From contig JBEKIW010000001.1 of assembly GCA_050011565.1 (NCBI GenBank), forward strand, positions 256,001 through 320,000: 64,000 nt of DNA, written 5' to 3'. This DNA comes from Dehalococcoidia bacterium (GTDB taxonomy: Bacteria > Chloroflexota > Dehalococcoidia > GIF9 > UBA5629). The first letter of the stretch is position 1. Each line of letters begins with the position of its first letter. The notes beneath the pieces are model-generated. The model saw nothing but the letters and a program-made list of their open reading frames with translations, was not told the origin of the DNA and searched no databases. The translations under genes and the position numbers were made by a program. Positions 13,077 to 32,745 of the stretch are shown here, one piece after another.

Positions 13077-13805
13077 TTGATGAAAAGGATAGATGGTCGC
13101 GCCAGCGATGAACTTCGGCCAATAAACGTTAGCTTGGGCTACCAGGCTTTTGCTGAAGGCTCAGCATTGATAGAGCTGGGGCGAACCAGAGTGCTGTGCT
13201 CAGTAAGTGTAGAGGACAGGGTTCCTCATTTCCTCAAAGGCGAGGGTACGGGCTGGGTTACTGCTGAATATGCCATGCTACCCCGTTCTACGCTGACCCG
13301 CACTCCTCGCAACCTCTCTCCTGAAAGGCAAGCCGGTAGAAATCAGGAAATACAGCGACTAATAGGTCGGAGCTTGAGGGCGGTAACCGACCTGGCAGCT
13401 CTGGGCGAAAGGACGTTTACCATTGACTGTGATGTGTTACAGGCTGATGGCGGTACCCGGACGGCAGCGATAACCGGTGGGTATGTAGCTCTGTTTGTGG
13501 CATTACATAATCTGAAAAAACGGGGCATGCTATCATCAATTCCGCTTAAAGGCGCGGTAGCCGCTACCAGTGTCGGTATTGTCGGTAGAGAGGCGCTACT
13601 CGACCTCTGCTACGAGGAAGATTTTCAAGCAGCCGTTGACTTCAATGTGGTGATGACGGATAAGGGTGAATTCGTGGAAATCCAGGGTACTGCGGAGGGC
13701 AAGCCTTTCTCCAAGGAAACGGTTGATTCTCTGCTGGCGCTGGCCCAAAAGGGCATCAAGCAGTTGCTTAAAATCCAAGAGTCAGCTTTAGCCGGGTTAG
13801 ACTAA
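13077..13805 (+). CDS. rph: Ribonuclease PH
   Basis: [44 protein letters not shown] and EIQGTAEG motifs. Confidence 0.97.
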
Positions 13806-15076: not shown

Positions 15077-15086
15077 ATTTTACTCC

Positions 15087-16199: not shown

Positions 16200-16289
16200 G
16201 GTGTGTAAATTATAGCGCTGTGGAAGATAGCCAACAAGTAATAGGCTCGCTTTTAGATGTAGTGGCAAGGCTTCGCCTAGCCGAAGCTC

Positions 16290-16578: not shown

Positions 16579-19500
16579 TTATCTCCTCAAAGCAATTAGC
16601 AGGGCTACTATCAGCATAATTATGGCTGTAACGCCGACGATAAACCACCAGTTAGTATTGGTCGGTTGGGAAACCTTGAGAATTTCAAACTCGCCGCTAA
16701 GGCCGGCTACTTCCACCTGATGTTTCCCAGCCGCATAGCCGGCAGTGGTGAAGTTCACTGTTTGGCTTGTCCCGGCGGCAGCGGTAACTTGCTTTGTAGA
16801 TGTTATTACCCCATCCACTTTCAACTGAAGACTATAATCTCCGCTCTTTTCCCCTGTGTTGGTCACCTTAATGCTAACTGTAACCTCCTGGTTGGGCTGA
16901 GCATGAGACGGGTTAACAGTCAGGTTACTCACCTCAAATTCAGCCGGTTTAGGTTCCGCCAACCTGGCTAGGACGGCGACAGGTGAGAAGTGGCTTGCCA
17001 GACCTTGCGCCTTGCCGAGTTCAGCCACGACGCCTGGCACCGGTGCCAATGCCTGCCAGCCTTGAGCCGCGTCAAAGTTGGCGATGAACACCTCCGTCGC
17101 ATTGGTGGGCAGCTTTTTAGGGTCGTACGTCAAAGTCAACGTGGCCGGTGGCAATATGGTGACGGGAGACGGTACTGTGGCGTACGAGGTAGGATAGGCG
17201 CTAATCTCGTATACCGGACCGACTATTGTGGTGTTCTCGGGAGCTGGTGGTGGGGCGGATGACTCACGGAATCTAAGCAGCAGCGGTACTCTATCACCGG
17301 CGAGTACTAATTTGGTGTCTTTATCGAGCTCAAGCACATATTTGCCCGATGCATCTTTGGCAATACAAGTTTCACAAAGTACGCCCTTACCAGTCATACT
17401 GGCCATGGTTGTGGTCCCCTGCATGTCTACCGCCAGTGTTGCCGGGCAGGCGACGAGTGATGCAGGTAGGCCGCCTCCACCACTTCCGCCAATTAGAGGT
17501 TGAGGTGTTGGTAGTTGGACGGATAAAGTCATACTGTCTATGCTAGTGCAGCCTTTGCTGTCAGTGACTGTTACAGTATATGTAGTATTGGTGTTCGGTG
17601 AGGCAGTCGGATTGGCGGATGCAGGATTGTTCAGATCGGTAGCGGGCACCCAACTATAGGTGTAGGGTGGTATGCCACCGGAAGCTGTTGGACTGCCGCC
17701 TATTACGGTCGAGCTGCCGGAAATTATTGTAAGGTCGGGGCCGGCATTAACGATTGGTCTGGTGTTTATGGTAACGGTCTTGTTATTACTGCTGGAGCAG
17801 CCTTTGGCGTTTGTGTAGCTGTAAGTGACGATATATGGTCCTGGTAGCAGACCTGTTGGGTTGAAATCAGAGCCGGAGACGCCGGTTCCGCTCCAGGTAC
17901 CTCCTGATGGGGAAGCACCTATCAGTGCTATAGGGTCACCTCCTTCACAGACATCCTGGTTAGGGCCGGCATCAACCGGCGTGGCGCAGGCATAACCGAC
18001 AGAGTATTTGCCGGTAGAACTCTTGCCGCTGAACCACATTTTATAAGGACAGGTATCACCGCCGAAGTTTGCGGCATCGTATAATACCCATGGTGTATAG
18101 GTTCTATCGTTCCTCCACGGCATGCCGTCGTCTTTATAAAAAATAGGGTTGCCAGGGTGCTTAGTCCAGTTTATGCCATCTGTCGACGTAGCATAGCCTA
18201 TGCCGTGATTAGTTTCCACACCGCCGCCGTACCACATCTGCCAGTTACCTGAAAGGTTTAGCACGCTGCAATATCCGACGCCAGTATTATCCCAATCTAA
18301 TGCGGTTCCCGGGCTCAGAACAGGGTTATTGACATATCTTTTCCAGTGTGTCCCATCGGCGGAATAGGCGAGACCGATGGCCTCGTTAGTGCCGTCGGTT
18401 CCCATATAATAGATAACATATTTGTTGTTCCAGATGTTGATGTCGTCGGGGAAGCCGCTTGAATTGTAGATTAAATCGCAGGGGCCATAAGAGCCAGTAT
18501 TCCAGTCAGGCCAGGAGTTGGTGACTAATGGATAAGTACCATCTTGAGTAAGAGCTTGGTCATTTGTCCAGTTGACTCCGTCGGTAGATTCCGCATATCT
18601 CAGAGCGTTAATACTGTAGAGATATGCCGTATCCTCGTACCACATCTTATAGAAAATTCCGTTGCCAAAGCCGTCAGGTCGGTATTTTACCAGTGGATGA
18701 TTTGCGCCGGTCACTAATCCAAATACGGGGTTTGGTCCAGCGGTCCAGTTGATGCCATCAGCGGATTCGGCATAACCTATTTGGCGCGTGCCTGTTCCGT
18801 CGTCCGAGCCGAACCACATCTTATAATAAGCAGTGTTACCATGCCCTGAAAACTGATTAGCGTCATATATTACTTTGGGGTAATAAGCCATAGCGCCACC
18901 GCCGGGCAGCCCCTGGCCGAATACCGGATTATTGCCGTACTCTACCCAGTCGCAGGGTGTGGGGGTAGGGGCAACTGTCAGGTTAGCCATCCCAAGTTTC
19001 CACTGTATCCAGTTTGAACTATCTAGGTTTGGATTGTCTGAGCCGAGGAACCATATCTGGTAATTGCTCCCTGTCTTGACCACCGAGGGCATCCATACGC
19101 TTTGGCTTCTCCATGCCACCCCGTCAGATGTTGTAAATAACGTTTGACTACGTGTCCAGTTTATGCCGTCGGTAGATGTAGCGTAGCCTATCCCGTTCAA
19201 GGCTTGGTATGTCGTCTCTTTTCCGCCTGAGTAGAACGCTTCCCAGTCTGTCGGGCTGTTCTTTATGACCTTGAACCATCCTATATGGTCGCAGTCAAAG
19301 TCGCTAGTGACCAGCGTTCCTGCAAATACCGGCGTGGCATAACCTGCCGCGGTCGGGTCGTAGCCTGTCCAGTTGTAGCCGTCACTGGAAAAGGCCATGA
19401 CTACGAGTTCCTTTCCGCCGTATGCTCCAAGCTCCCACTGGACGTTGGCATATATCCTGAATGTCCAGTCCGTACCCGTATTGGATGCTCCGGGGGTATA

Positions 19501-20031
19501 GACGACATCGGCTATACCATAGGTTACTCCCGTGGCAGCACTATATACTGGGGGTCCGAATTGGGTAACGGGTATGTGGTTAAACCAGTTTATTCCGTCC
19601 GGTGATTCAGCATATCTCCATCCGCTTATGCTATTTTGGTTCAGCCCTGCATACCACATGCGGTAATACATGGTCAATGAGCTTGGGTCGGTACCGCTGT
19701 TGGCTCCGGTGAATCCTGTGCTGTAGTATTTTACATCTGCGTGATACTGCGCATCCGATATTATGGGGTTGCCGCTATATGGAGTCCACGTTATGCCGTC
19801 GGGTGACTGGGCGAGATTAATCGAGGCAAAATTATTTCCGGCATAATATAGTTTATAGTTTACGTTGTCCTTAATGACATAGGCTTGATCCGGGATGAGT
19901 GTGGAGAATACAGGTGATGGGCTTTCATTGATGGTGAAGGTAACCGAGGACGCTATTGCCGGTGCTGCCATCAAGCTAAAGCTCACCCCCAGCACCATGG
20001 CAAACAAAACATTAAAGATCTTCTTTTTCAT
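16579..20031 (-). CDS. Large secreted, C-terminally anchored protein with two five-bladed beta-propeller (GH32/43/130-like) regions, Ig/PKD-like repeats, Gly linker, shared anchor module, CARDB-like domain and TM
   Basis: Signal peptide; many YAxSxDGINW Asp-box-like repeats; VDAGP/VNAGPD Ig repeats; C-terminal NWW-TM-RR. Confidence 0.8.
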   Translation of the reverse strand: MKKKIFNVLFAMVLGVSFSLMAAPAIASSVTFTINESPSPVFSTLIPDQAYVIKDNVNYKLYYAGNNFASINLAQSPDGITWTPYSGNPIISDAQYHADVKYYSTGFTGANSGTDPSSLTMYYRMWYAGLNQNSISGWRYAESPDGINWFNHIPVTQFGPPVYSAATGVTYGIADVVYTPGASNTGTDWTFRIYANVQWELGAYGGKELVVMAFSSDGYNWTGYDPTAAGYATPVFAGTLVTSDFDCDHIGWFKVIKNSPTDWEAFYSGGKETTYQALNGIGYATSTDGINWTRSQTLFTTSDGVAWRSQSVWMPSVVKTGSNYQIWFLGSDNPNLDSSNWIQWKLGMANLTVAPTPTPCDWVEYGNNPVFGQGLPGGGAMAYYPKVIYDANQFSGHGNTAYYKMWFGSDDGTGTRQIGYAESADGINWTAGPNPVFGLVTGANHPLVKYRPDGFGNGIFYKMWYEDTAYLYSINALRYAESTDGVNWTNDQALTQDGTYPLVTNSWPDWNTGSYGPCDLIYNSSGFPDDINIWNNKYVIYYMGTDGTNEAIGLAYSADGTHWKRYVNNPVLSPGTALDWDNTGVGYCSVLNLSGNWQMWYGGGVETNHGIGYATSTDGINWTKHPGNPIFYKDDGMPWRNDRTYTPWVLYDAANFGGDTCPYKMWFSGKSSTGKYSVGYACATPVDAGPNQDVCEGGDPIALIGASPSGGTWSGTGVSGSDFNPTGLLPGPYIVTYSYTNAKGCSSSNNKTVTINTRPIVNAGPDLTIISGSSTVIGGSPTASGGIPPYTYSWVPATDLNNPASANPTASPNTNTTYTVTVTDSKGCTSIDSMTLSVQLPTPQPLIGGSGGGGLPASLVACPATLAVDMQGTTTMASMTGKGVLCETCIAKDASGKYVLELDKDTKLVLAGDRVPLLLRFRESSAPPPAPENTTIVGPVYEISAYPTSYATVPSPVTILPPATLTLTYDPKKLPTNATEVFIANFDAAQGWQALAPVPGVVAELGKAQGLASHFSPVAVLARLAEPKPAEFEVSNLTVNPSHAQPNQEVTVSIKVTNTGEKSGDYSLQLKVDGVITSTKQVTAAAGTSQTVNFTTAGYAAGKHQVEVAGLSGEFEILKVSQPTNTNWWFIVGVTAIIMLIVALLIALRR

Positions 20032-20095: not shown

Positions 20096-20184
20096 AAAAA
20101 AACCGACTCACCTTTGGGTCGGTTTCACTATTAGCTCGGCACAGGTCAAGTGACCAAATTTCGACTGGTGCTTCATCGCCCCCC
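20096..20184 (-). ncRNA. c-di-GMP-II-like riboswitch copy 1 with overlapping intrinsic terminator
   Basis: Minus strand reads GGGGCGAUGAAGCAC...UUUGGUCACUU...GUGCCGAGCUAAUAGUGAAACCGACCC, then AACCGAC/GUCGGUU-U-run; matches the remembered c-di-GMP-II pattern (kink-turn, GUCAC/GUGA pseudoknot). Confidence 0.85.
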
Positions 20185-20225
20185 AATTCGGATATTCTAA
20201 ATTAGCTATCTTATCTAGCGGCTGC

Positions 20226-20254
20226 ATAGTCTCATACACTGCCGGCACTGTCAA
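20226..20254 (-). promoter_or_regulatory. Sigma70-type promoter TTGACA-17-TGnGACTAT
   Basis: Perfect -35 and 17-bp spacer; same layout at 24637, 28184 and 32746. Confidence 0.65.
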
Positions 20255-20382
20255 GTATCTTAACCTATCAGGACTTCACCATAAGTAGTACCTTTTTCCT
20301 ATAAACTCTGGTACCTTTGGGTGATGTGGCGGGATAGGCCATGCGACAGCGAGGCTTTAGCCTCGCCCGGACATGCTTCAAT

Positions 20383-21831
20383 TTAGCTTCGGCAGCTTTC
20401 AGTAGATTTATCAGTGGGTATGGCTGCAGATGCAGGTGCCGTCTTTTTGCGGTCTTTAAACCATCTCCAGCCCAAGATCGACCATATGGCTAGCACCAGG
20501 ACTGTAATTCCACCTATAAGCCACCAGTTGACTACAGATGGCACGGATGCTTTGATTACCTCAAATTCACCAACAAGACCGGCAACTTCTACCTGATGTT
20601 TGCCGGCAGTGTCACCGGTGGTGGTGAAATTCACTACTTGACTTTTCCCAGCGGCAACGGTTACCTGTGTGGTTGATTTCACTGCGCCATCGATTTTTAG
20701 CTCCAGACTATAATCTCCGTTTTTCCCACCGGTATTAGCCACGTTAACGCTAACTGTAATTTCCTGGTTTAGCTGAGTCTGGGTTGGGCTGACGGTCAGG
20801 TTGCTCACCTCAAATTTAGCTGGCGCTGCCTCTTCGAACTTGGCTAAGACTGCGAAAAGGGAGAAGTGGTTTAACAGGCCGTGTGCTTTACCGATTTCGG
20901 CGACGGCACCAGGTACTGGTGTCAGCGGCAGCCAGCCTTTTGTTGAGTCGTAGTCGTCGATGAACACCTCCGTAGTCTTTTCAGGTAATTTACTGGGGTC
21001 ATAACTCAAAATCAATCTGGCTGATGGCGATATGGCTATGGGCGATGGTGTCGTCTCGGAGGCTGAGGCATAAGCTGCGAACTCGTAGACCGGGCCTACT
21101 ATCATGGTATTTTCATCAGTTGGCAGTGAGTTGGATGCGATTTTGACTTTCAGTAGCAACGGTACTATATTGCCGGCAAGCATTACCTTGGTATCTTTAT
21201 CGAGTTCAAGTGTATTTTTACCAGAACTATCCTTGGCCAGGCACGCCTCACAGAGTACGCCGTCCTTAGTCATACTGGCGGTGGTTATGTTGCCCTGCAC
21301 GTCTGCGGTAAGTGTTAACGGGCAAGCATAGAATGATGCCGATAAGCCACCTGCGCTGCTACCCTGGCCACCACCGCCACCTCCTCCCCCTCCTGAGTAA
21401 CACAATGTTGTTCCCTGAGGGGTGTTGGAAAGCGGTGTCCACGTCCCAGTGGCGTCAGCCGCCTTGATAGCAAAGTAGTACGTGGTACATGGATTTAGCC
21501 CAATGACTAGGAGTGTCTCAGGGGAGCCAGGCGGTTGGGGTGTTGGTGGAGTTGCCAGTTGGATGGCTGCCTGCCACTCAGCCTCAGTAGTGATAGGAGA
21601 TAGAGAGTAGCGAATATCGTATTGAGTCGCCGGTCCCCAGCCGGGGGTAAGCTGTGGTGAATTCCAGGTCAAGGTCAGGCTGGTGTAGGTAGGGTCACCC
21701 ACCGCCAGGGTAATAGTATTACCGCCGACGGTGAAGCTGCCGGTTATGGAATTATCGGCGTAAGCCTGTGCCGGCGCGAGGCACAACAGCAGGCTCAGTA
21801 ATATAATATATTTCAGTATGGATTTGTTCAT
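20383..21831 (-). CDS. Secreted Fn3-domain protein with shared anchor module, CARDB-like domain and C-terminal TM
   Basis: Signal peptide ending AYA; Fn3 pattern (LTLTW...YDIRYS...GLNPCTTYYFAIKA); poly-Gly linker; NWW-TM-basic tail. Confidence 0.8.
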   Translation of the reverse strand: MNKSILKYIILLSLLLCLAPAQAYADNSITGSFTVGGNTITLAVGDPTYTSLTLTWNSPQLTPGWGPATQYDIRYSLSPITTEAEWQAAIQLATPPTPQPPGSPETLLVIGLNPCTTYYFAIKAADATGTWTPLSNTPQGTTLCYSGGGGGGGGGQGSSAGGLSASFYACPLTLTADVQGNITTASMTKDGVLCEACLAKDSSGKNTLELDKDTKVMLAGNIVPLLLKVKIASNSLPTDENTMIVGPVYEFAAYASASETTPSPIAISPSARLILSYDPSKLPEKTTEVFIDDYDSTKGWLPLTPVPGAVAEIGKAHGLLNHFSLFAVLAKFEEAAPAKFEVSNLTVSPTQTQLNQEITVSVNVANTGGKNGDYSLELKIDGAVKSTTQVTVAAGKSQVVNFTTTGDTAGKHQVEVAGLVGEFEVIKASVPSVVNWWLIGGITVLVLAIWSILGWRWFKDRKKTAPASAAIPTDKSTESCRS

Positions 21832-21843
21832 ATATGCCCACAG

Positions 21844-22983
21844 TTAGTAGTATGTCCTTCTCCGCATCATCAGTATGATGATTATCAGCACCAGTATCAC
21901 CACCCCGCCACCTATAGCCCCGATGAGAAGCCAGTTAATGTTACCGGCAGTCGCTGAAGACCCGCCCGTGCCCAGCTCCAGCTTTTCTTCTTTGCTGGAG
22001 ACATAGGGTTTACCACCAATATCAAGCTCGAGCTTAAAAGTATAGGTTGTCTTCTGCCAGCCTCCGGCTGGAATGTAATTGTAGCTTAATCCGGCCCTGC
22101 CTTTTTCTAGCGGGGCTAACGTGGCTAGCGTGGTCTCATCCAAAGGAGCGCCGCCTTCTGTTACCCTCAGTATTACTTTAGCTTCAGGGAAGGCCTCAAG
22201 CAGATTGTTTACCGTATAGACTACCTGAGCAAAAGCCAGCTCGTTGGTTTTGGTATTGTAATTAGGAACGATGCCGAAACCTTCGAAGTAAACCGTCTTG
22301 ACTTCCAATGTGATTTTTTTGGTCTCGTTGGCAGCCACGCTGAAGCTTTTATCAGCTAATTTGTTGCCGCCAACATAGGCTTCAGCCAGATAGTTACCCG
22401 GCGCTACTTTCATCTTGAGGTTTCCCGTCTCAGAATAGCCAACACTGAGATTTTGGTTGCTGGCTTGCTTATACAATTTGACCATGGCTGGTATAGCCAC
22501 GCCGTCGGGGGTGACAGAAGTCACCTCGACCGAGCCGGCTTCACCGGTGACGGTTAGCTTGGCGGTTTGCCCGGCAGCCCCCAAAAGTTTTATGCCCTCA
22601 CCTTCCTTGTAGGCTTCGGCAGTGACCTTGAGTGTATACTGACCCGGGATGGCAGCATCGCTCACATTAACGCCTATGGTCACCCTTTTCTGCTCACCAG
22701 CCTTGAGCGGGAAATCATTTTCCGAAAGCACCAGCTCTACACCGGCGGGAGTTTCCGTGGCTAATCTGATGTTGAAGTCCTCAGTGCCGTTGTTGAAGAC
22801 AGCCACATAGACGTCGGGGGCACTGAGGCTAGTACCCTGGGGTATTTCGAAATCCTGGCGGTAGAAGCTGCCTGACATCGCCAGCCCACCGGCATTTGCT
22901 GGCGGTGGTAAAAGCAGGCTGGCCATCAACAGGAGACTGAGGAGTGCAAGCCACCCAACCCCATGCTGTTTTATTGAAAGCAT
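21844..22983 (-). CDS. Secreted Ig-fold, C-terminally anchored protein (NEW3/DUF916-like; candidate assembly chaperone)
   Basis: Signal peptide from the ATG at 22983; VFNNG...LKAGEQKRVTIGVNV..AIPGQYTLKV pattern; NW-TM-RRR end. Confidence 0.65.
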   Translation of the reverse strand: MLSIKQHGVGWLALLSLLLMASLLLPPPANAGGLAMSGSFYRQDFEIPQGTSLSAPDVYVAVFNNGTEDFNIRLATETPAGVELVLSENDFPLKAGEQKRVTIGVNVSDAAIPGQYTLKVTAEAYKEGEGIKLLGAAGQTAKLTVTGEAGSVEVTSVTPDGVAIPAMVKLYKQASNQNLSVGYSETGNLKMKVAPGNYLAEAYVGGNKLADKSFSVAANETKKITLEVKTVYFEGFGIVPNYNTKTNELAFAQVVYTVNNLLEAFPEAKVILRVTEGGAPLDETTLATLAPLEKGRAGLSYNYIPAGGWQKTTYTFKLELDIGGKPYVSSKEEKLELGTGGSSATAGNINWLLIGAIGGGVVILVLIIIILMMRRRTYY

Positions 22984-23218
22984 ATCATTTCCTTTTCCGA
23001 GCGCATTTACCAGCGTTCCTTTTACAATGTAGACTCGACCCAAAATATCCCCTTAGCCTCGGGGCTCAGCGCTCTATACGCGATGTAGCCTAGAGGCTGC
23101 ATTAATTATAAAGGATAAACACGTCGAAAGTCACGGAGCTAAAGTCTGCTGGCTACGTCTCATGTGTTATTGCTCGTAGCCTGAATCATAGAGTATTATC
23201 CTATAGCTTTGACTTAAG

Positions 23219-23254
23219 GTCGTAGCGGTGAGGTTTTAGCCTCACCGCTACGAC
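23219..23254. repeat. Perfect 15-bp GTAG-type REP-like hairpin
   Basis: GTCGTAGCGGTGAGG-TTTTAG-CCTCACCGCTACGAC just 3' of the 341-aa gene; no U-run. Confidence 0.7.
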
Positions 23255-23276
23255 ACTGGTAAACGATTTAAGAACC

Positions 23277-24302
23277 CTAGCGATTAGTAATCTGGTAGTA
23301 GATGCTGCCGCTGTAAGTATCAGGTGTAATGCCGGATGCACTGAGCGATAGCCACAAGGTGTTGGTGTTGACATCATCGCCGCCTTCGGTGGTGAGGGTT
23401 CCTGTGATGTCTGTATCAGTGTAGCTCGTCTTATTTACGATAACTGCACTACCCAGGGCGTTGATGTCGTTCCCCATAAGGGCAAATTCGCCCGGGTCGG
23501 TGGGTGGATTACCGCCGCTCTCATCAAGGGCTACAGTCTCAGCACTGACGGCACCGGTCCAATTTGTTGACTTGATATTTTCCGCGTAGTTGCCGTTGGC
23601 GATGTAGTTAATCTTTATGTCGGTCTCTGGATTGGCGGCACCAGCGAATAGCAAGCCCAAGTCCACGGGGCCCCAATCTACCAATAGAGGGGGAGTTATA
23701 GTGATTTCACCGTACCAGTTCATTGCCGTATCGCGGTCATACATTTCACCCGTTTGGGCACTCTTATTGGTTACCAGACCCTGAGCATCCCAATTAGCCG
23801 TACCGGTGCTCTCGGTGGCTACCTTACCGGGGGTGAAGGCAAATATCCAGTCGCCGGTTGTGAGTTCCGGATTGGCTGGCGCTGTACACGTACCAAGCAC
23901 CCAGGTGGTGCCGCCGCCGGTGGGATTGATAGTCCAGGTTGTTCCGCTGGCATTCCAGGTTAGTATGGCGCAGGTCTGGGTATTGGGTGTGGTCGGTGCA
24001 ACCGGGTCGTTGCCGGCACTATCATAGAATAGGGTTACCTCGACCGTGTCCAGATTGCTCAGCTTATTGACGGAACCAACCGTTACCTTGACGTAGTATT
24101 CGGTTAATGGGTCCATGGAAAGGGCAGGGTTTAGGCAGGTAATGTCGGTAAAGATTCCTATTGCAGACACGGTTGGGGGTTGGCTTCTGGCACCGAAGCT
24201 TCCTGTGGTTGTTCCTCCTGTATCAGCATAAGCTGCCGGCACCAGCAGCAGCGATAGAACTGCTACTAGGGCGAGTATGGTAGATAATTTCGTTTTAAAC
24301 AT
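23277..24302 (-). CDS. Secreted 341-aa beta-rich protein with no TM anchor (candidate major fibre subunit)
   Basis: Signal peptide ending AYA; Thr/Gly-rich; ends ITPDTYSGSIYYQITNR; homologous to the C-terminal ~290 aa of 24840-28010. Confidence 0.75.
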   Translation of the reverse strand: MFKTKLSTILALVAVLSLLLVPAAYADTGGTTTGSFGARSQPPTVSAIGIFTDITCLNPALSMDPLTEYYVKVTVGSVNKLSNLDTVEVTLFYDSAGNDPVAPTTPNTQTCAILTWNASGTTWTINPTGGGTTWVLGTCTAPANPELTTGDWIFAFTPGKVATESTGTANWDAQGLVTNKSAQTGEMYDRDTAMNWYGEITITPPLLVDWGPVDLGLLFAGAANPETDIKINYIANGNYAENIKSTNWTGAVSAETVALDESGGNPPTDPGEFALMGNDINALGSAVIVNKTSYTDTDITGTLTTEGGDDVNTNTLWLSLSASGITPDTYSGSIYYQITNR

Positions 24303-24387
24303 TTTTTATGTTTAACCTCCTTTGTGTTTTTTGGATATTTTATTGCAGGTCATTTAGTAATGCTTTTTGTCATTCTGGCCTTTTACC

Positions 24388-24453
24388 CTGTCATTCTGAG
24401 GGAGCATATCGACCGAAGAATCCGGAGACTCTTCGCTTGGCTCAGAGTGACAG
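24388..24453. repeat. REP-like palindromic element (GTCATTCTGAG...CGAAGAATC...CTTCG...CTCAGAGTGAC)
   Basis: Nested inverted repeats; a related half-copy lies at positions 5-30. Confidence 0.6.
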
Positions 24454-24500
24454 ATTAATAAACCGCTTTGGTTTAAGTATTATCACCTCCTATTTTGTCT

Positions 24501-24597
24501 AAAAAGAAACCGACCATTAAAAAACGGGTCGGTTTCACTACTGGCTCCACACAGGTCAAGTGACCACATTGCGACCGGTGCTTCATCGCCCCCCCCC
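24501..24597 (-). ncRNA. c-di-GMP-II-like riboswitch copy 2 with terminator
   Basis: Same aptamer core as copy 1 (GCGAUGAAGCACCGGUC...UGGUCACUUGACCUGUGU...UAGUGAAACCGACCC) followed by GGUCGGUUUCUUUUU. Confidence 0.85.
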
Positions 24598-24636
24598 AAT
24601 CTTACGTTCTACTTAGTTATCGTATCTTACGGCTAC

Positions 24637-24665
24637 ATAATCTCATACGGCTTTGTCAATGTCAA
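24637..24665 (-). promoter_or_regulatory. Sigma70-type promoter TTGACA-17-TGnGATTAT
   Basis: Conserved with the other three riboswitch leaders. Confidence 0.65.
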
Positions 24666-24839
24666 GTATCTTAACCTATCAGGACTTCACCATAGGCAGT
24701 ACTTTTTTCCCATAAGGTTTAGTACTTTTGTAGGGTTGGCAGCAGACAATGCAATTCGATGTGATTTGATCTCGCCCAAAATGCTCATATGGTCTAAAAA
24801 GGTTGCTTCCACAATGTAATCACTTAATAGTAACTAAGA

Positions 24840-27800
24840 CTAGCGTTCGGCAATCTGGTAGTAGATATTGCCGCCATAAATTACGGGAGCAATGCCTACC
24901 TCACTGAGCGATAGCCATAGACTATTGTTGGTGATAGTAACGCCGGCTTCGGTGGTAAGGCCTCGAGTGTCATTTATGTGGTTATAGCTACTGGTGACAG
25001 TGATTGCACTACTTGGCTCGTTGATGTCATTTGCCATGAGGGCAAATTCGCCTGGATTGGTAGGTGGGTCACCTGTAGAGAGAGTTACGGTCTCACTGCC
25101 GCCGACCCAGTCTTCTGACCTGATGTCTTCATAGTAGTTGCCGTTGGCAATGTATTTAATACTTACGGCCTCTGGATTCGGGGTATCCTCGAATTTAAGA
25201 CCCAGCGGCACTTCACCCCAGTCGACTGAAGGGGTATTAACGGTAATTTCACCATACCAGTTCATGTCCTTGTTGCGGACATATCTTTCGCCTGTTTGGG
25301 TGGGGTTACGGATTGCCTTACCCTGGGCATCCCAATCTGCTACCCCGATATTCTCGGTGGCTACTTTTCCTGGTTTGAAGGCGAATATCCAGGCACCGCT
25401 GGTGGTATTCAATGGCGGCTGGAAGCACCCGCCGGTCTCTATTGTCCATGACGTAGGGGCACCGGAGGAGATAGTCCAGGTAGGTGTAGAGCCGACACCG
25501 CAGGTCAGTATGGCACAGGTCTGAGTATTGCCACTCGTCGGTGCCGTCATATCGTCGGCGCCGGTTTCATTATAGAAAAGAGTTACCTGGACTGTTTGGA
25601 GGTGTTCCAGGTTATTAGATAGAGTGACCGACAGCCTGGCGTAGTATGTGAATTGTGGAGTCATGGAATCGGCAATTGTGGTGCAGCCAGGGTCTTCATA
25701 GATTTCTAATTCAGTAACAGTTGGGATGCTAGCCGGGTTGACGGTGACGTCTACACTAGCGTTGTTCTGGCAGCCATAGGAGTTGGTGACGGTTAAGATA
25801 TATTCTCCTGCCATTGATATAGTGGCGTTGGGTATGGAAGGTGACTGCGCCAGGCTGGAGAAGCCATTTGGCCCGGTCCAGGAATATGAACTCATTCCGT
25901 TAGGTCCGCCGGTTAACAGAATGGTATTGCCCTCCTCGACGGGCGAGTTGCCCGAGGCTGAGGCTGTAGGCCTGGGATTGACGATGACATTGACTGAGTC
26001 CGAGGCGGTGCAGTGGTATTCGTAGGTTAGCTCGTAGATTACGCCTCCGGGATTGGCGGTCACGGTGCCCCCAGTCGTTTGTTCATTGGCGGCTCTTATC
26101 TCCAGTATGTTTGTGCCTATCTGAAGGGTAGGCGAATAAGACTCAACTGATTGCCAGCCTGATGAAGCGACCCAATTATCGGTTAAATCGCTGTCTTCCC
26201 ATGGTATGCCATTATAGTCTGTGAGCTGGGCTAAGCCGAGAAAGATTCCATTCATATAGGCTTCGTAGCCGTTATCACAGGTGATGCGAAGTGTGGCGTT
26301 TGTTGGAGCGGTAGCAATGTCGAAGCTGCGCTCGAAGTAGACTACGTCGCCTGCCTCAGGATGGACTACCTGATAGCTTTCCCATATCCACTGGGCAGTA
26401 TTATTGGGATAACCGAAGTTGTAGTCCAGGCCTGACCACCAGTTGGGGTGCACCCAGGCTAAAACGGCATTATGTGGTGTAGCACCATTGCCTCGGGTGA
26501 CCATAGTATTATTGTCGCTGACAACCTTGTTGCTGCACATAGCGCTATCGGTGACGGTGACAGCCACAGTGCCGGCGCCGCTGGCGATATATTCATTGCC
26601 TTGATATGAGCCTGGTGCAGTGCTGACGCTCCAGTCGTAGGTATAAGGCGGGGCGCCGCCAGCGGCATTGGCGGTTAGTGTAGTACTGCCGCCTTCGCAG
26701 AAGGCTGGGTTGCCGTTGATAGATACGGCGAGAGATGATGGCGTGGTGACGGTGACCTGGGTGCTGTTAGTGCACTGGCAGCCGCCGACAGTGACGGTTA
26801 TGCCGATGGTGACCGGGCCAGTTGAGCCAGCTCTCCAGGTAATGGAGCTGGTGCCCTGTCCTGCGGTTATGGTGCCGTTGGTTATCGACCAGGTATAGGT
26901 GGCCCCGCCTCCGGCATCTGGGACTGAGGCGGTATTACCAGTGGAGTTGGCGTAGACTGAAGAAGGTGCGGTGATGGTGCAGTCGATTGTTATAACGGTG
27001 ACCTGGGTGCTGTTAGTACACTGGCAGCCGCTGGCGGTGATGGTGATACCCAGGGTGACGTTGCCGCTGGGGCCGGCGGTATAGGTGATGGAGTTAGTAG
27101 TTCCGCCTGCGGTGATGGTGCCGTTGGATATAGTCCAGGTATAGGTAGCGCCGGTCACGGCTGTGACCGAGGCATGGTTACCGGTGGAGTTAGCGCAGAC
27201 TGAAGCTGGAGTTGGGGTGATGGTGCAGTCAGGGTTTGGTTTGATGGCGAGGGTAACGGCCCGCCAACGTTCACTACCTGTGCCGGTGAGGTCGAACGCT
27301 GCTGTACCTGTGGCTCCAATGGCCGATTGAGTTATGTCAGCGGCACCACCGCTGCTGGTACCCGACCCGCTATAGCTCTCGATGCTGAAGCGGCCTGTAT
27401 GCCCTGATGGATATCCGGCACCGGCTCCCAGATCGCCATCGGCCCCGTAGATACGGAGCACCAGTGTGTCAGCGACTGTGGTGGTGACACTTGGTGCTGT
27501 GGGGGTGTTTGAGTTACCGGTAGCGGAACCAGATACATTGATGGGATTCCCGGTGCAAAAGTTGCTATAGCGGAGAATGGCACCGACTGCCTGTTCGCTG
27601 CCGGACCACGTGATTGTGTAGGAGCTCGGCTCGGATGCTCCTGCGACCTTGTAAAACACGCCGAGTCTAATTTCATTAGACCCAGTCCCGCTGCTCCCCT
27701 CGTTGATTAGTGTCCACCCCGAAGGCGTACTGATGGCTCCGGTGCCATCCTTCGACAGAATGGCGATGAGCAGATCGCCTTGTGCAGTACCAGTCGGCTT

Positions 27801-28010
27801 GTTGATGGTCAGGCTGGTTCCGTTGGAACCGAGAGTGGCTGTAGCAAGGCTTTGGTAAGTTGGCGGGCCGGCGGCCTGAACGGTCGATACTGGCACAAGC
27901 GCTGCCATAAAGGCACTAACAATCAGTACCGCAGTAAAGATGCTCCTTGCAGCTATCACAAAGATTCTACTGCGCATGGTTATCTGTTTTGTGTTTATTA
28001 ACCTCTTCAT
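24840..28010 (-). CDS. Large secreted multidomain adhesin-like protein: N-terminal beta domain, tandem Ig/PKD-like repeats, galactose-binding-like domain and a C-terminal domain shared with the 341-aa protein
   Basis: Signal peptide; two ~82-aa DCTIT...GCQCTNSTQVTV repeats; AQWIW...CDNGYEAYMNG...NPGG lectin-like fold; ends IYGGNIYYQIAER; no TM anchor. Confidence 0.78.
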   Translation of the reverse strand: MKRLINTKQITMRSRIFVIAARSIFTAVLIVSAFMAALVPVSTVQAAGPPTYQSLATATLGSNGTSLTINKPTGTAQGDLLIAILSKDGTGAISTPSGWTLINEGSSGTGSNEIRLGVFYKVAGASEPSSYTITWSGSEQAVGAILRYSNFCTGNPINVSGSATGNSNTPTAPSVTTTVADTLVLRIYGADGDLGAGAGYPSGHTGRFSIESYSGSGTSSGGAADITQSAIGATGTAAFDLTGTGSERWRAVTLAIKPNPDCTITPTPASVCANSTGNHASVTAVTGATYTWTISNGTITAGGTTNSITYTAGPSGNVTLGITITASGCQCTNSTQVTVITIDCTITAPSSVYANSTGNTASVPDAGGGATYTWSITNGTITAGQGTSSITWRAGSTGPVTIGITVTVGGCQCTNSTQVTVTTPSSLAVSINGNPAFCEGGSTTLTANAAGGAPPYTYDWSVSTAPGSYQGNEYIASGAGTVAVTVTDSAMCSNKVVSDNNTMVTRGNGATPHNAVLAWVHPNWWSGLDYNFGYPNNTAQWIWESYQVVHPEAGDVVYFERSFDIATAPTNATLRITCDNGYEAYMNGIFLGLAQLTDYNGIPWEDSDLTDNWVASSGWQSVESYSPTLQIGTNILEIRAANEQTTGGTVTANPGGVIYELTYEYHCTASDSVNVIVNPRPTASASGNSPVEEGNTILLTGGPNGMSSYSWTGPNGFSSLAQSPSIPNATISMAGEYILTVTNSYGCQNNASVDVTVNPASIPTVTELEIYEDPGCTTIADSMTPQFTYYARLSVTLSNNLEHLQTVQVTLFYNETGADDMTAPTSGNTQTCAILTCGVGSTPTWTISSGAPTSWTIETGGCFQPPLNTTSGAWIFAFKPGKVATENIGVADWDAQGKAIRNPTQTGERYVRNKDMNWYGEITVNTPSVDWGEVPLGLKFEDTPNPEAVSIKYIANGNYYEDIRSEDWVGGSETVTLSTGDPPTNPGEFALMANDINEPSSAITVTSSYNHINDTRGLTTEAGVTITNNSLWLSLSEVGIAPVIYGGNIYYQIAER

Positions 28011-28031
28011 TTTTTCGTTTTACTGAACTAG

Positions 28032-28119
28032 AAAAACCGACCGCAAAAATGGGTCGGTTTCACTATTGGCTCGGCGCCGGCCAAGTGACCAAATTTCGGC
28101 TGGTGCTTCATCGCCCCCC
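28032..28119 (-). ncRNA. c-di-GMP-II-like riboswitch copy 3 with terminator
   Basis: Same core with a compensatory stem change (GCC/GGC instead of GUC/GAC); terminator ACCGACC/GGUCGGUUUUU. Confidence 0.85.
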
Positions 28120-28183
28120 ATTTAATATTTTTTTCGGCTGGCATATTGCCATGATTTCTGTTTACATTCTATTCAGTAACAGA

Positions 28184-28212
28184 ATAATCGCATATAGGGG
28201 AGGCACTGTCAA
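28184..28212 (-). promoter_or_regulatory. Sigma70-type promoter TTGACA-17-TGnGATTAT
   Basis: Conserved with the other leaders. Confidence 0.65.
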
Positions 28213-28300
28213 GTATCTTATCCTATCAGGACTTTACTATAAACAGGACTATGGTACTATCAGGGTTGGTACCTTTGGGTGATATAGTGGGGTGAATGAG

Positions 28301-28403
28301 GTAGCGGCAGGGGTTTTAGCTCCGGCAGGCATGGATGATTTCAGTAGTATGTAGGGGTGGGGTTTTAACCCCGCCCGCGCGACCTTAAAAGGTCGCAATT
28401 ACA
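28301..28403. repeat. GTAG-headed REP-like hairpin cluster
   Basis: GTAGCGGCAGGGGTTTTAGCTCC, GTAGGGGTGGGGTTTTAACCCCGCCC and GCGACCTT-AA-AAGGTCGC hairpins. Confidence 0.5.
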
Positions 28404-28631
28404 TGTTTTGGTCATTAGTTGTTTGTGATTTGGAGCTTGGGATTTAGTGCTTGATAAGCTGAGCTTGTACATGAAGCATCTGCTCTCATCTGCCACCAAG
28501 CACACGTGTTTAACTGTCTACAGTACTATTTTGCCACGGGATTCGGTACCTTTGCGGGATTGTGTGATGAGATTGGATAGGGTAGAGTTAGTATAGGACG
28601 ACAACAGACAACTTTAGGGAGGTTTATTAAC

Positions 28632-28859
28632 ATGGCACGTCGTAATGGGAATGGTCTGCTGACCGCAAGACAGGTAGCTCGGCTTCTCAACGTGCATGTT
28701 AACACGGTGCGGCGATGGAATGACCGGGGAATACTAAAGGCGTACCGCATAGGTCCACGAGGCGACCGGAGATTCAACAAGGCAGATATCGATATGTTTC
28801 TTGCCGGAAACGGTCAGCCCGACAATGAGACCGAGGCTGCCCTGGTACTTGTTAGTTGA
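28632..28859 (+). CDS. Small excisionase/BldC-like (HTH_17, MerR-like winged HTH) DNA-binding protein
   Basis: LLTARQVARLLNVHVNTVRRW...G.LKAYRIGPRGDRRF; GGAGG RBS. Confidence 0.85.
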   Translation: MARRNGNGLLTARQVARLLNVHVNTVRRWNDRGILKAYRIGPRGDRRFNKADIDMFLAGNGQPDNETEAALVLVS

Positions 28860-28932
28860 AGACACGAATTAGCGGAATATCTTTTTGCTTCACGCTGCGT
28901 TTAGGTACCAGATTGTAGCCAGCTCGGATTAA

Positions 28933-31900
28933 TTAGCTAAACCGCCTCCGTCTTATGAGCATCCATATAGCCAGCGCCAGTATTATGGCAGCGATAATGC
29001 CGCCGATAGGCCACCAGTTAATAGATGGCGGCCCGGCTACCACAAATTCGCCGGTCAGGCTGGCTATCTCTATCTGATATTTGCCGATAGCGTCTTCAGC
29101 TACAGTGAAACTCACTATCTGGTTTGCTCCAGCCCCAAGCGTTATCTGTTTGGTTGATTCGACCACACCATTGACTTTCAGTTCCACTGTATAATCTCCG
29201 CTGGTGCCGCCTGTGTTGGACACATTAACGCTGATGGTAACTTGCTGTGCGGGTTGGGTCTGAGTTGGGTTGATGTTTAATTTGCTTACTTCAAAGTTAG
29301 GTGCCACCTTTGCCAGCTTGGCCAGTAAAGTATCGGGTACGAAGTAGTTCAGCGTGCCGCGGGCTTGACCGACCTCGGCGACAACTCCCTCCGAGCCCAT
29401 GGCTAGCCAACCCTGGTTGGGATTGGGGTAGTAGGAGAGTAGCACCTCCGAGACATTCTTGGGCAGCTCATTGGGGTCATAAGCTGAAGACATAGTAAAT
29501 AGCGGAGAAATGGTAATCGGAGATGGAGTCAGTCCATTCAGGGAAGCATAAGCATTGATCTCGTAGGTAGGTCCGATTGTTTTTGCATTAACTGCTGGTG
29601 GTGACGAGCCAACCGTTGTTATTTTGATGAGTTGTGGTACCTTATTGCCTTCCAGAGTTAGTTTTGTTCCCTCTTTGGCTTCCCAGCTATTATGTTTTGG
29701 CGGGTCGAAAGCCAGACAATTTTCACAAAGGACTCCGTCTGAGGTCATTGTGGCTGTGGTTGTTTGGCCCAGCATATTTACCGTGAGCGTCAGTGGGCAG
29801 GCAGATGCTGTGGCTGTAGGGGCTGCCGCGGCAAGAACACTTGCGGGTATGCCACCTATACCGCCACCTCCGCCGCCACCACTGATGGGAGGGGGCATTG
29901 GCAAGTACATGTTTACGGAAACAGAAGCAGTGGCGCAGGTGTAGCATGTGGGAGCCTTGGCGGATATCGTGGCTGGGGACGAGTTGGTGCTGGAGGTGAA
30001 GACAGCAGTGGCGATGCCGCTGGTGGTGGTCTTGGGGCTTTCGATGGAACCTGTGTCCGTAGTAAAGATGATTTGGGTGCCATCAGGAATATGCCCTTGG
30101 GCTGAAGTATCCTGCCCATCAGAGTTCTTGGTCATGTCCGCGGTGATGACGGAGGTTGATACACCGTCTGCCGGGATGCTCGGCGGGTTGGCGCTCAGGT
30201 TGAGCACCAGCCAGGGGTCGTACGTGACGTTGTCTGACACCTTATCGCCGCTGCCCGGGCCGACGGCTCCAGGACCGTCATTGCAGCCCCACCAGTTATT
30301 GGTGGCGTCCAGAGTACCGATGCCAGCGTTGTTAGCGCCGTAAACCGTGTTGCAGACGATGTTGTTGAAGCTGGCGCTGACATTGGCAGCGTTAACTTCG
30401 GATTCAACCAGGATGCCATTACCATTGCTAGATAACATATTGCCCATAAGGGTGCTACCGGCGGCCACAGAGCCGAATAAGCGAATACCGTTTACCCAAG
30501 AAGAGACGGTATTGTTAGTGATGGTGGCCGCGATGCTTCCAGCTGCGTCGTTTGCAGAAGTATCGCCGATTATGATGCCGTCAGCCGATGTTGACCCACT
30601 TGTGAGCTGGTTATTATCTATGGTGATTGCTAGGGATGCACCGGCGACGTATGTTTGAGCCATAATCGCCGCTTCCTCCCACCCGGGGATGTCCTTTACG
30701 CCACTCACGGTATTGCCCACAAAGGAAACAGTGTATGAACCCGCCGTATAGTACTGAGCCCCCATAGGCTCTCGTCCCACCGTTCCGCCAGTCACTGTGT
30801 TAGCCTGCGCTGCAACGCTGCTATCCTGGGCTATGATCCCGAATTGGCAGTCAGTTATGATGTTGTTGTTGGCGGTGGAACCACCGCTGTTGTTAAAAAG
30901 GATGCCCGCGGCCCACCATGTTTCCGGGACATATTCAAGGTTGCTAATCGTATTATAATTCACCGTCGCTACAGCGGCCCAGCCGATATCAACGCCGTTC
31001 TGAACCTCGTCCCCGACAGGTAGAGGACCTCGCCCAGTAATCGTGTTGTGATGTATGTTGACGGTGAGCGTATTTCCCTTGGCGTTTATGCCCTCCTTGT
31101 CGAAGTTCGTGATTGTTGAACCTTTGACTTCCACAGAGACGGTGTTCGTTGCCGCTGAGAGATACATGCCATAGCCACGGTCTGAAGTAGAATCCAAAGC
31201 TCCTCCTCCAACCACACTGACAGTATCCATTGTGCCGCCGGTCTCACGGTAGAAGATACCGGCAAGGTAATCGGCTCCGGTCGGCATGGTGGTAACACTG
31301 CTTTCATCGACTTTCAGATTCTTCACCGTTACCGCGCTGCCATCGGAAACGTTGGCTACAATGATGCCGGCAATCTGCTTCGTGCCGCCACCCGCGGACA
31401 AGCCGCTGAACACCTGCGTGAGTATGGCAGCCGAAGAAGGCTTTACAATGGTAGTATCACCAGCACCCTGCAACGTCAGGCTCTTGTTTATCACTACCTG
31501 CTCATCATACGTCCCCGCCGCCACATTCACCGTGCTGCCAGCCACGGCATCGACGCCATCCTGGATAGTGGCGAAGGCATCATAGCCGAAGACGTGCCCA
31601 TCAACTATCTCACCCTCATATTTACCTGCCCAGTCATCGTCTACCCACACTTCCGTGGGAGTTCCCTGAACAGCCGCCACACCACCCCATGTCACAGTAC
31701 CGTCGCCAGCAGCATATTCCCAGTTCCCGACGAATACGAATGGATTGACCGCAGATTTATTTACGGCGGCTTCAGGTACATCCTGATATTGCGGCGCATC
31801 AAACATCTGGAACCACGTCATAGCCGCATTATTCAAAGGGTTGGTGGTCTTATGCACACGCTGAAACGCAGTAACCCGGAAACCATTGCCCGGCCCCAAG

Positions 31901-32466
31901 TCATGGAATATCATCTTAAAGTCAAATGTGTCGTACTCCGCATCGCCTGTGCAATGATATCCGCCATTCGCAAGTTGTGACCCTGCGTTCTGATACGGTG
32001 TGTTCCAGCCAAAACCCGGTCCCTGGAACTGGTTTGTGGCATCTGTATACCATTGCTGACTCAAATAATACAGAGCCTGATTCCATCCAGCCCACATCTG
32101 GTTCATCCATGCGGAGCTCCTGGGATTGATACACGGTCCAAGAGCTGTCTGGTTAGTGATTCCAAGTTGAAAACCGGTCTTAAAGGTAGGTGCTGGCAAA
32201 GGAGGCGTATAAGGGCAGGACCAGTTGAGCGTACGACTGTCCTTCATGTCCACGTTCATCGCGTACAGGACCAAGTCGCCAGCAGTTAAGTTAAACGTTG
32301 CTGGAAACACTGTCCCTGAACCACCACACCACTCCCCTACCCCTGTCGTTATCGATCCTCCAGGAAACACAAAGGAACCGTCTGCCTTCACCGGGCTTGC
32401 CGGCGCTAGGCTGAAGCTTAGCGACAGCACCAAGGCAAATAAAATGCTAAAAATCTTCTTTTTCAC
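28933..32466 (-). CDS. Large secreted, C-terminally anchored protein with right-handed beta-helix, invasin/Big_1-like domain, shared anchor module, CARDB-like domain and TM
   Basis: GTG start with MKKKIF signal peptide; TIQDGVDAV...VNVAAGTYDEQVVINKSLTLQG beta-helix start; DATNNWWG; SANPPSIPADGVSTSVITA; NWW-TM-RRR. Confidence 0.8.
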   Translation of the reverse strand: MKKKIFSILFALVLSLSFSLAPASPVKADGSFVFPGGSITTGVGEWCGGSGTVFPATFNLTAGDLVLYAMNVDMKDSRTLNWSCPYTPPLPAPTFKTGFQLGITNQTALGPCINPRSSAWMNQMWAGWNQALYYLSQQWYTDATNQFQGPGFGWNTPYQNAGSQLANGGYHCTGDAEYDTFDFKMIFHDLGPGNGFRVTAFQRVHKTTNPLNNAAMTWFQMFDAPQYQDVPEAAVNKSAVNPFVFVGNWEYAAGDGTVTWGGVAAVQGTPTEVWVDDDWAGKYEGEIVDGHVFGYDAFATIQDGVDAVAGSTVNVAAGTYDEQVVINKSLTLQGAGDTTIVKPSSAAILTQVFSGLSAGGGTKQIAGIIVANVSDGSAVTVKNLKVDESSVTTMPTGADYLAGIFYRETGGTMDTVSVVGGGALDSTSDRGYGMYLSAATNTVSVEVKGSTITNFDKEGINAKGNTLTVNIHHNTITGRGPLPVGDEVQNGVDIGWAAVATVNYNTISNLEYVPETWWAAGILFNNSGGSTANNNIITDCQFGIIAQDSSVAAQANTVTGGTVGREPMGAQYYTAGSYTVSFVGNTVSGVKDIPGWEEAAIMAQTYVAGASLAITIDNNQLTSGSTSADGIIIGDTSANDAAGSIAATITNNTVSSWVNGIRLFGSVAAGSTLMGNMLSSNGNGILVESEVNAANVSASFNNIVCNTVYGANNAGIGTLDATNNWWGCNDGPGAVGPGSGDKVSDNVTYDPWLVLNLSANPPSIPADGVSTSVITADMTKNSDGQDTSAQGHIPDGTQIIFTTDTGSIESPKTTTSGIATAVFTSSTNSSPATISAKAPTCYTCATASVSVNMYLPMPPPISGGGGGGGIGGIPASVLAAAAPTATASACPLTLTVNMLGQTTTATMTSDGVLCENCLAFDPPKHNSWEAKEGTKLTLEGNKVPQLIKITTVGSSPPAVNAKTIGPTYEINAYASLNGLTPSPITISPLFTMSSAYDPNELPKNVSEVLLSYYPNPNQGWLAMGSEGVVAEVGQARGTLNYFVPDTLLAKLAKVAPNFEVSKLNINPTQTQPAQQVTISVNVSNTGGTSGDYTVELKVNGVVESTKQITLGAGANQIVSFTVAEDAIGKYQIEIASLTGEFVVAGPPSINWWPIGGIIAAIILALAIWMLIRRRRFS

Positions 32467-32530
32467 TCTGAAACCTCCGGCTATTTGATTTCGATAAAAG
32501 CCACTTATACCTTTTCCCCTTTTTCCGAAT

Positions 32531-32618
32531 AAAAAAACCGACCGCTAAAATGGGTCGGTTTCACTACTGGCTCGGCATCAGCCAAGTGACCAAATTGCGG
32601 CTGGTGCTTCATCGCCCC
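32531..32618 (-). ncRNA. c-di-GMP-II-like riboswitch copy 4 with terminator
   Basis: Same core (GGGGCGAUGAAGCACCAGCC...UUUGGUCACUUGGCUGAUGCCGAGCCAGUAGUGAAACCGACCC) followed by GGUCGGUUUUUUU. Confidence 0.85.
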
Positions 32619-32745
32619 ACCCTCCTACGTTGTAGTGTTTATAAATTATTGTTAGTTAATCACCTACCTGTCGGCTCGTTTCGGAAACTGCTTTGAGCCG
32701 TGTTGGAATTCATCCAAACAGAATCCCCAGTGTATGTTTGAGTAC

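Follow-up and report, generated by a model that had tools for sequence, protein, structure and literature searches.

Four predicted class II cyclic di-GMP riboswitches in the leaders of surface-protein genes of a Dehalococcoidia genome

The locus and its four aptamers

We analysed a 64,000-nt stretch of a Dehalococcoidia genome (contig JBEKIW010000001.1, positions 256,001 to 320,000; hereafter "the window"), in which four elements matching the class II riboswitch for cyclic di-GMP (c-di-GMP) precede genes for surface proteins. Scanning the whole window against Rfam 15 with cmscan returned exactly four matches above the gathering score, all to c-di-GMP-II (RF01786) and all on the minus strand. 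The gathering score of this family is 53.5 bits, the E-values of the four matches run from 1e-11 to 5e-10, and every copy spans model positions 1-84 of 84. The four minus-strand elements noticed in a first-pass annotation, which was made from the letters of this DNA, fall within these matches. With their genes they form four units between proBA and an S8 protease/cca pair, in one 16-kb island. The features are listed below by window coordinates.

13802-16268: conserved flank, proA/proB
16579..20031, minus strand: gA, 1150 aa, under copy 1; signal peptide, GH130-like region, PKD-like and CARDB domains, C-terminal NWW-transmembrane (TM) anchor (from open reading frame (ORF), Pfam and termini)
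20096..20125, minus strand: predicted terminator of copy 1; RNAfold hairpin of -10.4 kcal/mol, then a U-run; its 5′ arm is aptamer nt 68-75 (AAACCGAC)
20108..20192, minus strand: c-di-GMP-II aptamer copy 1; RF01786 57.0 bits, RF03169 47.7, RF03170 44.0
20226..20254, minus strand: promoter-like site of copy 1; TTGACA, 17 nt, TG-n-GACTAT; read from the sequence, not caught by the consensus scan
20383..24302, minus strand: gB1-gB2-gB3, presumed operon under copy 2 (from ORFs, Pfam and termini)
20383-21831, minus strand: gB3; C-terminal TM anchor
21844-23043, minus strand: gB2; C-terminal TM anchor
23277-24302, minus strand: gB1; secreted all-beta protein
24501..24535, minus strand: predicted terminator of copy 2; hairpin of -12.4 kcal/mol, then CUUUUU
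24518..24602, minus strand: c-di-GMP-II aptamer copy 2; RF01786 60.7 bits
24637..24665, minus strand: promoter-like site of copy 2; TTGACA, 17 nt, TG-GATTAT; 10/12, a consensus match only
24840..28010, minus strand: gC, ~1050 aa, under copy 3; secreted PKD-repeat protein (Pfam PKD_6), exact start codon uncertain
28030..28060, minus strand: predicted terminator of copy 3; hairpin of -14.4 kcal/mol, then a U-rich tail
28043..28127, minus strand: c-di-GMP-II aptamer copy 3; RF01786 63.0 bits
28184..28212, minus strand: promoter-like site of copy 3; consensus scan 10/12 with TG
28933..32466, minus strand: gD, 1177 aa, under copy 4; signal peptide, Invasin_D3 and CARDB domains, C-terminal NWW-TM anchor (from ORF and Pfam)
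32531..32561, minus strand: predicted terminator of copy 4; hairpin of -12.8 kcal/mol, then a U-run
32544..32628, minus strand: c-di-GMP-II aptamer copy 4; RF01786 57.9 bits
32964-35625: conserved flank, S8 peptidase and CCA-adding enzyme

The four copies are 75-84% identical pairwise over 85 nt and 86-93% over a 69-nt core, so the description "near-identical" in the first-pass annotation suits the core and is slightly generous for the full length. The strings GAUGAAG, GAG, GGUCAC and GUGA are the same in all four, as had been claimed for the kink-turn-like (GAUGAAG/GAG) and pseudoknot (GUCAC/GUGA) nucleotides; the pseudoknot of the window copies consists of UCAC/GUGA plus GG/CC. The compensatory change from U-A to C-G previously noted in an internal stem is real. 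It lies at the last pair of helix P3, which is U-A in copies 1 and 2 and C-G in copies 3 and 4 in the RF01786 alignments. In the Rfam register, copy 4 has a U-C mismatch in helix P1. One pseudoknot pair is U-A in the window copies, versus G-C in the Rfam consensus.

Covariation was evaluated on an alignment of 61 aptamers from 22 genomes of the lineage, all with at least 44 bits (the 8 weaker of 69 matches were dropped), using the Rfam structure plus the pseudoknot. Standard pairs occupy 81.9% of the cells, compared with 31-40% when partners are slid and 70.2% in shuffles, where 0 of 500 reach 81.9%; the shuffle control overstates the significance because the sequences are related. Both-sided changes occur at 23 of the 28 pairs. 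By helix, P2 is 97.3% paired, with both-sided change at 3 of 3 pairs, and P3 is 90.0% paired, with such change at 8 of 8. The six pseudoknot pairs are 95.9% paired and three of them show both-sided change, and the inner P1 pairs are G-C in 55-60 of the 61 aptamers.

In the solved aptamer of Clostridium acetobutylicum, A69 reads G-alpha, A70 intercalates between the bases, G73 reads G-beta and A61 forms the ceiling (PMC13715770). The 3′-side numbering of the window copies coincides with that of this structure. Among the lineage aptamers, A69, A70 and G73 are each present in 61 of 61 and A61 in 60 of 61. Conservation is similarly high at G19 (58/61), A20 (61/61), G56 (60/61) and A57 (61/61). We take G19 A20 / G56 A57 to be the kink-turn between P2 and P3 (tandem G.A/A.G). 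The C. acetobutylicum aptamer (PDB 3Q3Z) has A61, A69, A70, G73, the kink-turn and the pseudoknot in common with the window copies (PMC13715770); its first P2 pair is A14-U60, whereas that of the window copies is G-C, as in the Rfam consensus (g-c). Judged from sequence, the four elements are genuine class II c-di-GMP riboswitches: new members of an established class, with the usual wiring and the usual kind of target.

Terminator overlap and the direction of control

In all four leaders, AAACCGACC (aptamer nt 68-76, A68-C76) forms the 5′ arm of a hairpin by pairing with GGUCGGUUU a few nt downstream, and a U-run comes next. The hairpins, with predicted free energies of -10.4 to -14.4 kcal/mol, lie within the minimum-free-energy (MFE) fold of the full leader in every case, and the proposal that the 3′ strand of the aptamer doubles as a terminator arm is confirmed at 4 of 4 sites. 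Besides the ligand-contacting A69, A70 and G73, this arm holds A68, C71 and C72, which pair in the pseudoknot, and the first nucleotides of P1. Because the ligand-contacting nucleotides lie inside the terminator arm, the layout is that of a transcriptional ON switch, and because the RNA cannot adopt the ligand-bound fold and the terminator at once, the logic is predicted to be ON. The ON wiring suggested in the first-pass annotation is therefore borne out as a layout, in that the terminator 5′ arm is the pseudoknot and ligand strand.

Conservation of the overlap was scored automatically for 69 matches in 24 genomes, by asking for CCG paired into a hairpin and then a U-rich stretch. A terminator overlapping AACCG was detected in 61 of the 69 lineage matches. 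At least one of the misses, G003:C1:680439, plainly contains GGUCGGUUUUU; the automatic test passed it over because its MFE fold was a different one.

In the mechanism we propose, each riboswitch would have its own promoter-like site and control its own downstream gene or operon. When the ligand is absent, AAACCGACC would pair with GGUCGGUUU, an intrinsic terminator would form and transcription would end short of the gene. With c-di-GMP bound, these nucleotides would instead be engaged in the pseudoknot, the pocket (A69, A70, G73) and the base of P1; the terminator would then be blocked and RNA polymerase would read into the gene. The genes switched on in this way would encode large secreted or C-terminally membrane-anchored proteins of immunoglobulin (Ig)-like, PKD and CARDB domains, and high c-di-GMP would most likely remodel the cell surface for attachment. 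We consider it very probable that the four copies are class II c-di-GMP ON switches of surface-protein genes that act by ligand-dependent anti-termination. The analysis shows covariance-model membership, covariation, pocket conservation, terminator overlap and the presence of c-di-GMP enzymes (see below); that the ligand binds, which way regulation runs in vivo and that the proteins serve adhesion we infer.

A switch acting at translation, or an OFF switch, would be easiest to imagine at copy 3, where the longest ORF of gC starts ~10 nt past the U-run and occlusion of the start site is possible. At copies 1 and 4, however, the GGAG ribosome-binding sites of gA and gD lie ~60 nt past the terminators and stay free of pairing in the folds, and the copy 2 aptamer and gB1 are 215 nt apart; given these distances, control is most likely transcriptional. 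No alternative anti-terminator that ligand binding could disrupt is evident, and ON logic follows from the shared strand being part of the fold that binds the ligand. Translational or OFF control is thus extremely improbable next to transcriptional anti-termination.

This arrangement corresponds to that of Clostridioides difficile, whose class II riboswitches are described in passages of a review (PMC11477304) as transcriptional ON switches governing adhesin and type IV pilus genes. The C. difficile Cdi2 series (pilin operon, CD2831, CD3246 and cmrRST) belongs to the same Rfam family as the window copies and, as far as those passages go, likewise has an overlapping terminator after the aptamer and surface-protein genes downstream. 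The host here is instead a member of the Chloroflexota, class Dehalococcoidia. Moreover, the window proteins are anchored by a C-terminal TM helix, whereas those of C. difficile carry sortase motifs, and the four window units are adjacent in one 16-kb island, whereas the C. difficile units are scattered. Since the riboswitch class, the ON logic and the link to adhesins are all established, the locus brings nothing new about the riboswitches themselves. A literature search returned nothing joining c-di-GMP, riboswitch and Dehalococcoidia, and c-di-GMP-II and Chloroflex* co-occurred in a single paper, in unrelated passages.

Ligand specificity and c-di-GMP signalling in the host

Several observations weigh against anti-termination by c-di-GMP at these sites. 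The outer part of the 11-bp P1 of the Rfam model is poorly paired in the lineage (63.5% of cells for the helix); the shortness of P1 and the mismatch in copy 4 may make binding weak in some copies. A search for RNA runs containing window positions 23200-32700 returned none. The covariation alignment is rich in related sequences, for which the slid control is fairer than the shuffle. The nearest-neighbour folds ignore both the pseudoknot and the ligand, and the gaps of 12.7-16.4 kcal/mol between the free MFE and a fold with the pocket and pseudoknot nucleotides single-stranded are uninformative because the fold model has neither. Finally, the pocket floor, formed by an unpaired purine at the P1-P2 junction together with its partner, is G.A in all four copies and in 45 of the 61 lineage aptamers, and A.g in the Rfam consensus.

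The floor pair would fit a shift of the aptamers to another cyclic dinucleotide, such as 3′,3′-cyclic GMP-AMP (3′,3′-cGAMP) or cyclic di-AMP (c-di-AMP). The purine-purine pair under the ligand is G.A where the consensus and an aptamer derived from Bacillus halodurans have A.G, and an engineered single-nucleotide class II variant binds cGAMP isomers (PMC13715770). All four copies also pass the gathering score of 40 of the variant family RF03169 (c-di-GMP-II-GAG), with 47.7-53.3 bits, and copy 3 passes that of RF03170 (c-di-GMP-II-GCG), to which the copies score 40.0-48.8 bits. Although the variant families share clan and fold with the window copies, the parent model RF01786 outscores both by 9.3-17.9 bits at every copy. 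The covariance-model search proposed in the first-pass annotation is thus positive for the parent family at 4 of 4 sites, with lower scores for RF03169 and RF03170. Among the 61 aptamers of the lineage the floor pair is free to vary (GA 45, AA 7, GG 4 and AG 3), for which reason we read it as a tolerant stacking platform that probably entails no change of specificity. The nucleotides A61, A69, A70 and G73 are conserved in the same aptamers.

The enzymes of the host point the same way. The genome (G000; 2.0 Mb, 8 contigs, 99.2% complete) encodes five GGDEF domains, all with an intact GGDEF motif and GHxxGD aspartate, and four HD-GYP genes. This aspartate is replaced in the cGAMP-making Hypr GGDEFs. 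Searches of the 99.2% complete genome found no DAC (c-di-AMP cyclase), SMODS-type cyclase, EAL or PilZ domain, and control genomes were positive in each case. The first-pass annotation had suggested looking for GGDEF, EAL and HD-GYP genes; the first and last are present, and EAL was not found. A search of the genome for c-di-GMP-I (RF01051) gave no match, and as the control genomes were without a match as well, this result is uninformative. With GGDEF and HD-GYP present and DAC and SMODS-type cyclases not found, the ligand should be available and other cyclic dinucleotides are unlikely. The variant specificity that the first-pass annotation had kept in view is therefore without support and in our judgement very unlikely, and we retain c-di-GMP as the predicted ligand.

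RNA may be the main c-di-GMP receptor in this host, PilZ being the only receptor type searched for. Because no PilZ gene was found in the 99.2% complete genome, c-di-GMP appears to act nearly exclusively on surface-protein genes, by way of RNA switches. The closest relatives of the window proB are all metagenome-assembled genomes labelled Dehalococcoidia, Dehalococcoidales or Chloroflexota, and the locus offers a testable handle on the role of c-di-GMP in uncultured, wall-less Dehalococcoidia.

Surface proteins, the island and its relatives

The proteins downstream of the four aptamers carry signal peptides and surface-protein domains (Pfam, termini), in agreement with the original assignment of each element to the leader of a surface-protein gene. 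An ortholog of gA stands behind a riboswitch in a related genome, G009, and the leader and N-terminus of gD are homologous to those of gA. A C-terminal module of ~290 aa is common to gA, gB3 and gD; it is distinct from the module of gB1 and gC, in which the C-terminal ~300 aa of gC are paralogous to gB1 (repeats D4, D7, D9 and D10; tblastn). The gene order gB1-gB2-gB3 is the same in four relatives. The gB1 protein belongs to a family of 208 "hypothetical" proteins, and its matches with a named source are labelled Dehalococcoidia or Chloroflexi. Its AlphaFold model is all-beta, with a predicted local distance difference test (pLDDT) score of 91.6. Foldseek returned weak matches (E ~1e-4, TM 0.2-0.36) to Gram-positive pilins, chaperone-usher pilins and MSCRAMM adhesins, and this model-based fold search supports tandem Ig-like beta-sandwiches, nothing more specific.

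Within gC, positions 26749-27153 consist of 246-nt tandem repeats of PKD type. Metagenome contigs from three runs contain a joint here that "goes back 216", which suggests either variation in repeat copy number or assembly ambiguity.

The host genome has six c-di-GMP-II matches. A fifth copy (G000:C4:6835-6918, plus strand; locus L150) is intact, scores 56.8 bits and repeats the terminator design of the window copies; the gene behind it encodes 1223 aa with DUF11, C25 propeptide and Peptidase_C25 domains. The sixth (G000:C1:610164-610247, minus strand; locus L151) is degenerate, with 40.5 bits and a broken terminator U-run. Matches were found in 24 of 41 genomes (G000 and relatives), including 11 of the 13 other genomes of the same genus, and, in a class-wide sample, in 23 of 151 genomes counting G000, where a single genome has as many as 10 copies. 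In the relatives, the first ORF behind the riboswitch usually starts with a signal peptide. Pfam families there include beta-helix/NosD, PKD, CARDB, Big, InlB-repeat and DUF11, with no family assigned to 28 of 60 ORFs; a few targets are response regulators, exo-endo-phosphatases, an alpha/beta hydrolase or acyl-CoA dehydrogenases. Nearest-neighbour aptamer identity did not split orthologs from paralogs, because the aptamer sequences are too short.

Two further features of the minor copies were recorded. The gene past the target of the fifth copy encodes an adenylate/guanylate cyclase-AAA-TPR protein of 1134 aa. The leader of the sixth copy resembles those of copies 1 and 4, and the protein encoded downstream of this copy has 1545 aa and combines ice-binding-like, beta-helix and fn3 domains.

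Parts of the four units are themselves repeated. A 118-nt promoter module is common to copies 1-3 (relative to copy 1, 81% identity in copy 2 and 69% in copy 3), and a 133-nt module of leader and signal peptide is common to copies 1 and 4 (84%; repeat D6). The elements could accordingly be seen as repeats spread by duplication of promoter-leader modules, some of them decaying relics that no longer switch, a view to which the low score and broken U-run of the sixth copy and the P1 mismatch of copy 4 also lend themselves. Yet the four window copies keep all invariant nucleotides, compensated helices and intact terminators, and the gene order and riboswitches at this island are kept in other species of the genus. 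We give relic status of the window copies very little credence and continue to read them as putative functional switches.

In four further species of the genus, the flanks proA/proB and S8 peptidase/cca border cassettes that are related but made up differently, which supports the assembled gene order. In G009 the island contains gA, gB3-gB1, gC and, where the contig stops, a gD C-terminus; its three riboswitches fall within 7 kb. The island of G010 is without gA and gD, and those of G013 and G002 have other compositions still. These comparisons show a cluster that belongs to the lineage and varies in content.

Of the 191 genomes sampled, this one has the densest cluster, with four matches in 12.5 kb, so the earlier remark that such a dense cluster is unusual holds in that respect. 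It is less singular in another: G009:C19 and G174:C16 each have three matches within 7-13 kb, several genomes have two, and relatives have two or three at the same site. True tandem aptamers occur elsewhere in the class (G054:C141, G163:C106 and G141:C1). Passages of PMC9481103 report tandem c-di-GMP-II riboswitches before surface anchor genes in Paraclostridium, as 59 doublets and 9 triplets. By that account, Paraclostridium resembles the window in having several class II aptamers close together that control surface proteins; it has several aptamers in one leader, however, whereas in the window each aptamer has a promoter-like site, a terminator and a gene.

No further hairpin with a U-run was found between the units on the minus strand in a simple, low-sensitivity scan, and for this reason the riboswitch terminators may also end the upstream transcripts. 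A broader and rather doubtful reading joins several of these points. Riboswitches rather than PilZ would be the main c-di-GMP receptors of this Dehalococcoidia lineage, and the serial ON switches, all on one strand, with no other recognisable terminator between them and with P1 helices of differing strength, would produce a graded, hierarchical deployment of surface proteins with increasing c-di-GMP. The repeated modules would at the same time be recombination sites for the gain and loss of cassettes at a proBA-S8/cca hot spot. The interest of the locus is modest: the sensor is ordinary and the cluster a little unusual, and what stands out is its density, its site in a variable surface-protein island and the apparent absence of PilZ receptors in the host. 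The riboswitches mark this variable island, which may decide cell attachment.

In metagenome run X1, possibly the source run, contigs end at the repeats of the promoter module (~20254-20278 and ~24665-24689) and within gC, and one metagenome contig spans copies 3 and 4. Candidate deletion variants were considered at the joints 20187>28184 (X4) and 20368>28379 (X1, X3) and rejected: the short side has 20-30 letters, and the joints are off register with the repeats.

Two other elements lie in the intergenic regions. Between the terminator of copy 2 and gB1, the leader contains an imperfect palindrome resembling repetitive extragenic palindromic (REP) elements (24389-24450, minus strand; core 24389-24422), with seven genomic copies at up to 6 mismatches. 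In metagenome contigs its depth is far above that of its flanks (~100x versus 5x, X3), and it adjoins a wide variety of sequences. A 75-aa ORF on the plus strand (28632-28859), situated in the 805 nt that separate gD from copy 3, has by eye the look of an excisionase/MerR-type helix-turn-helix protein.

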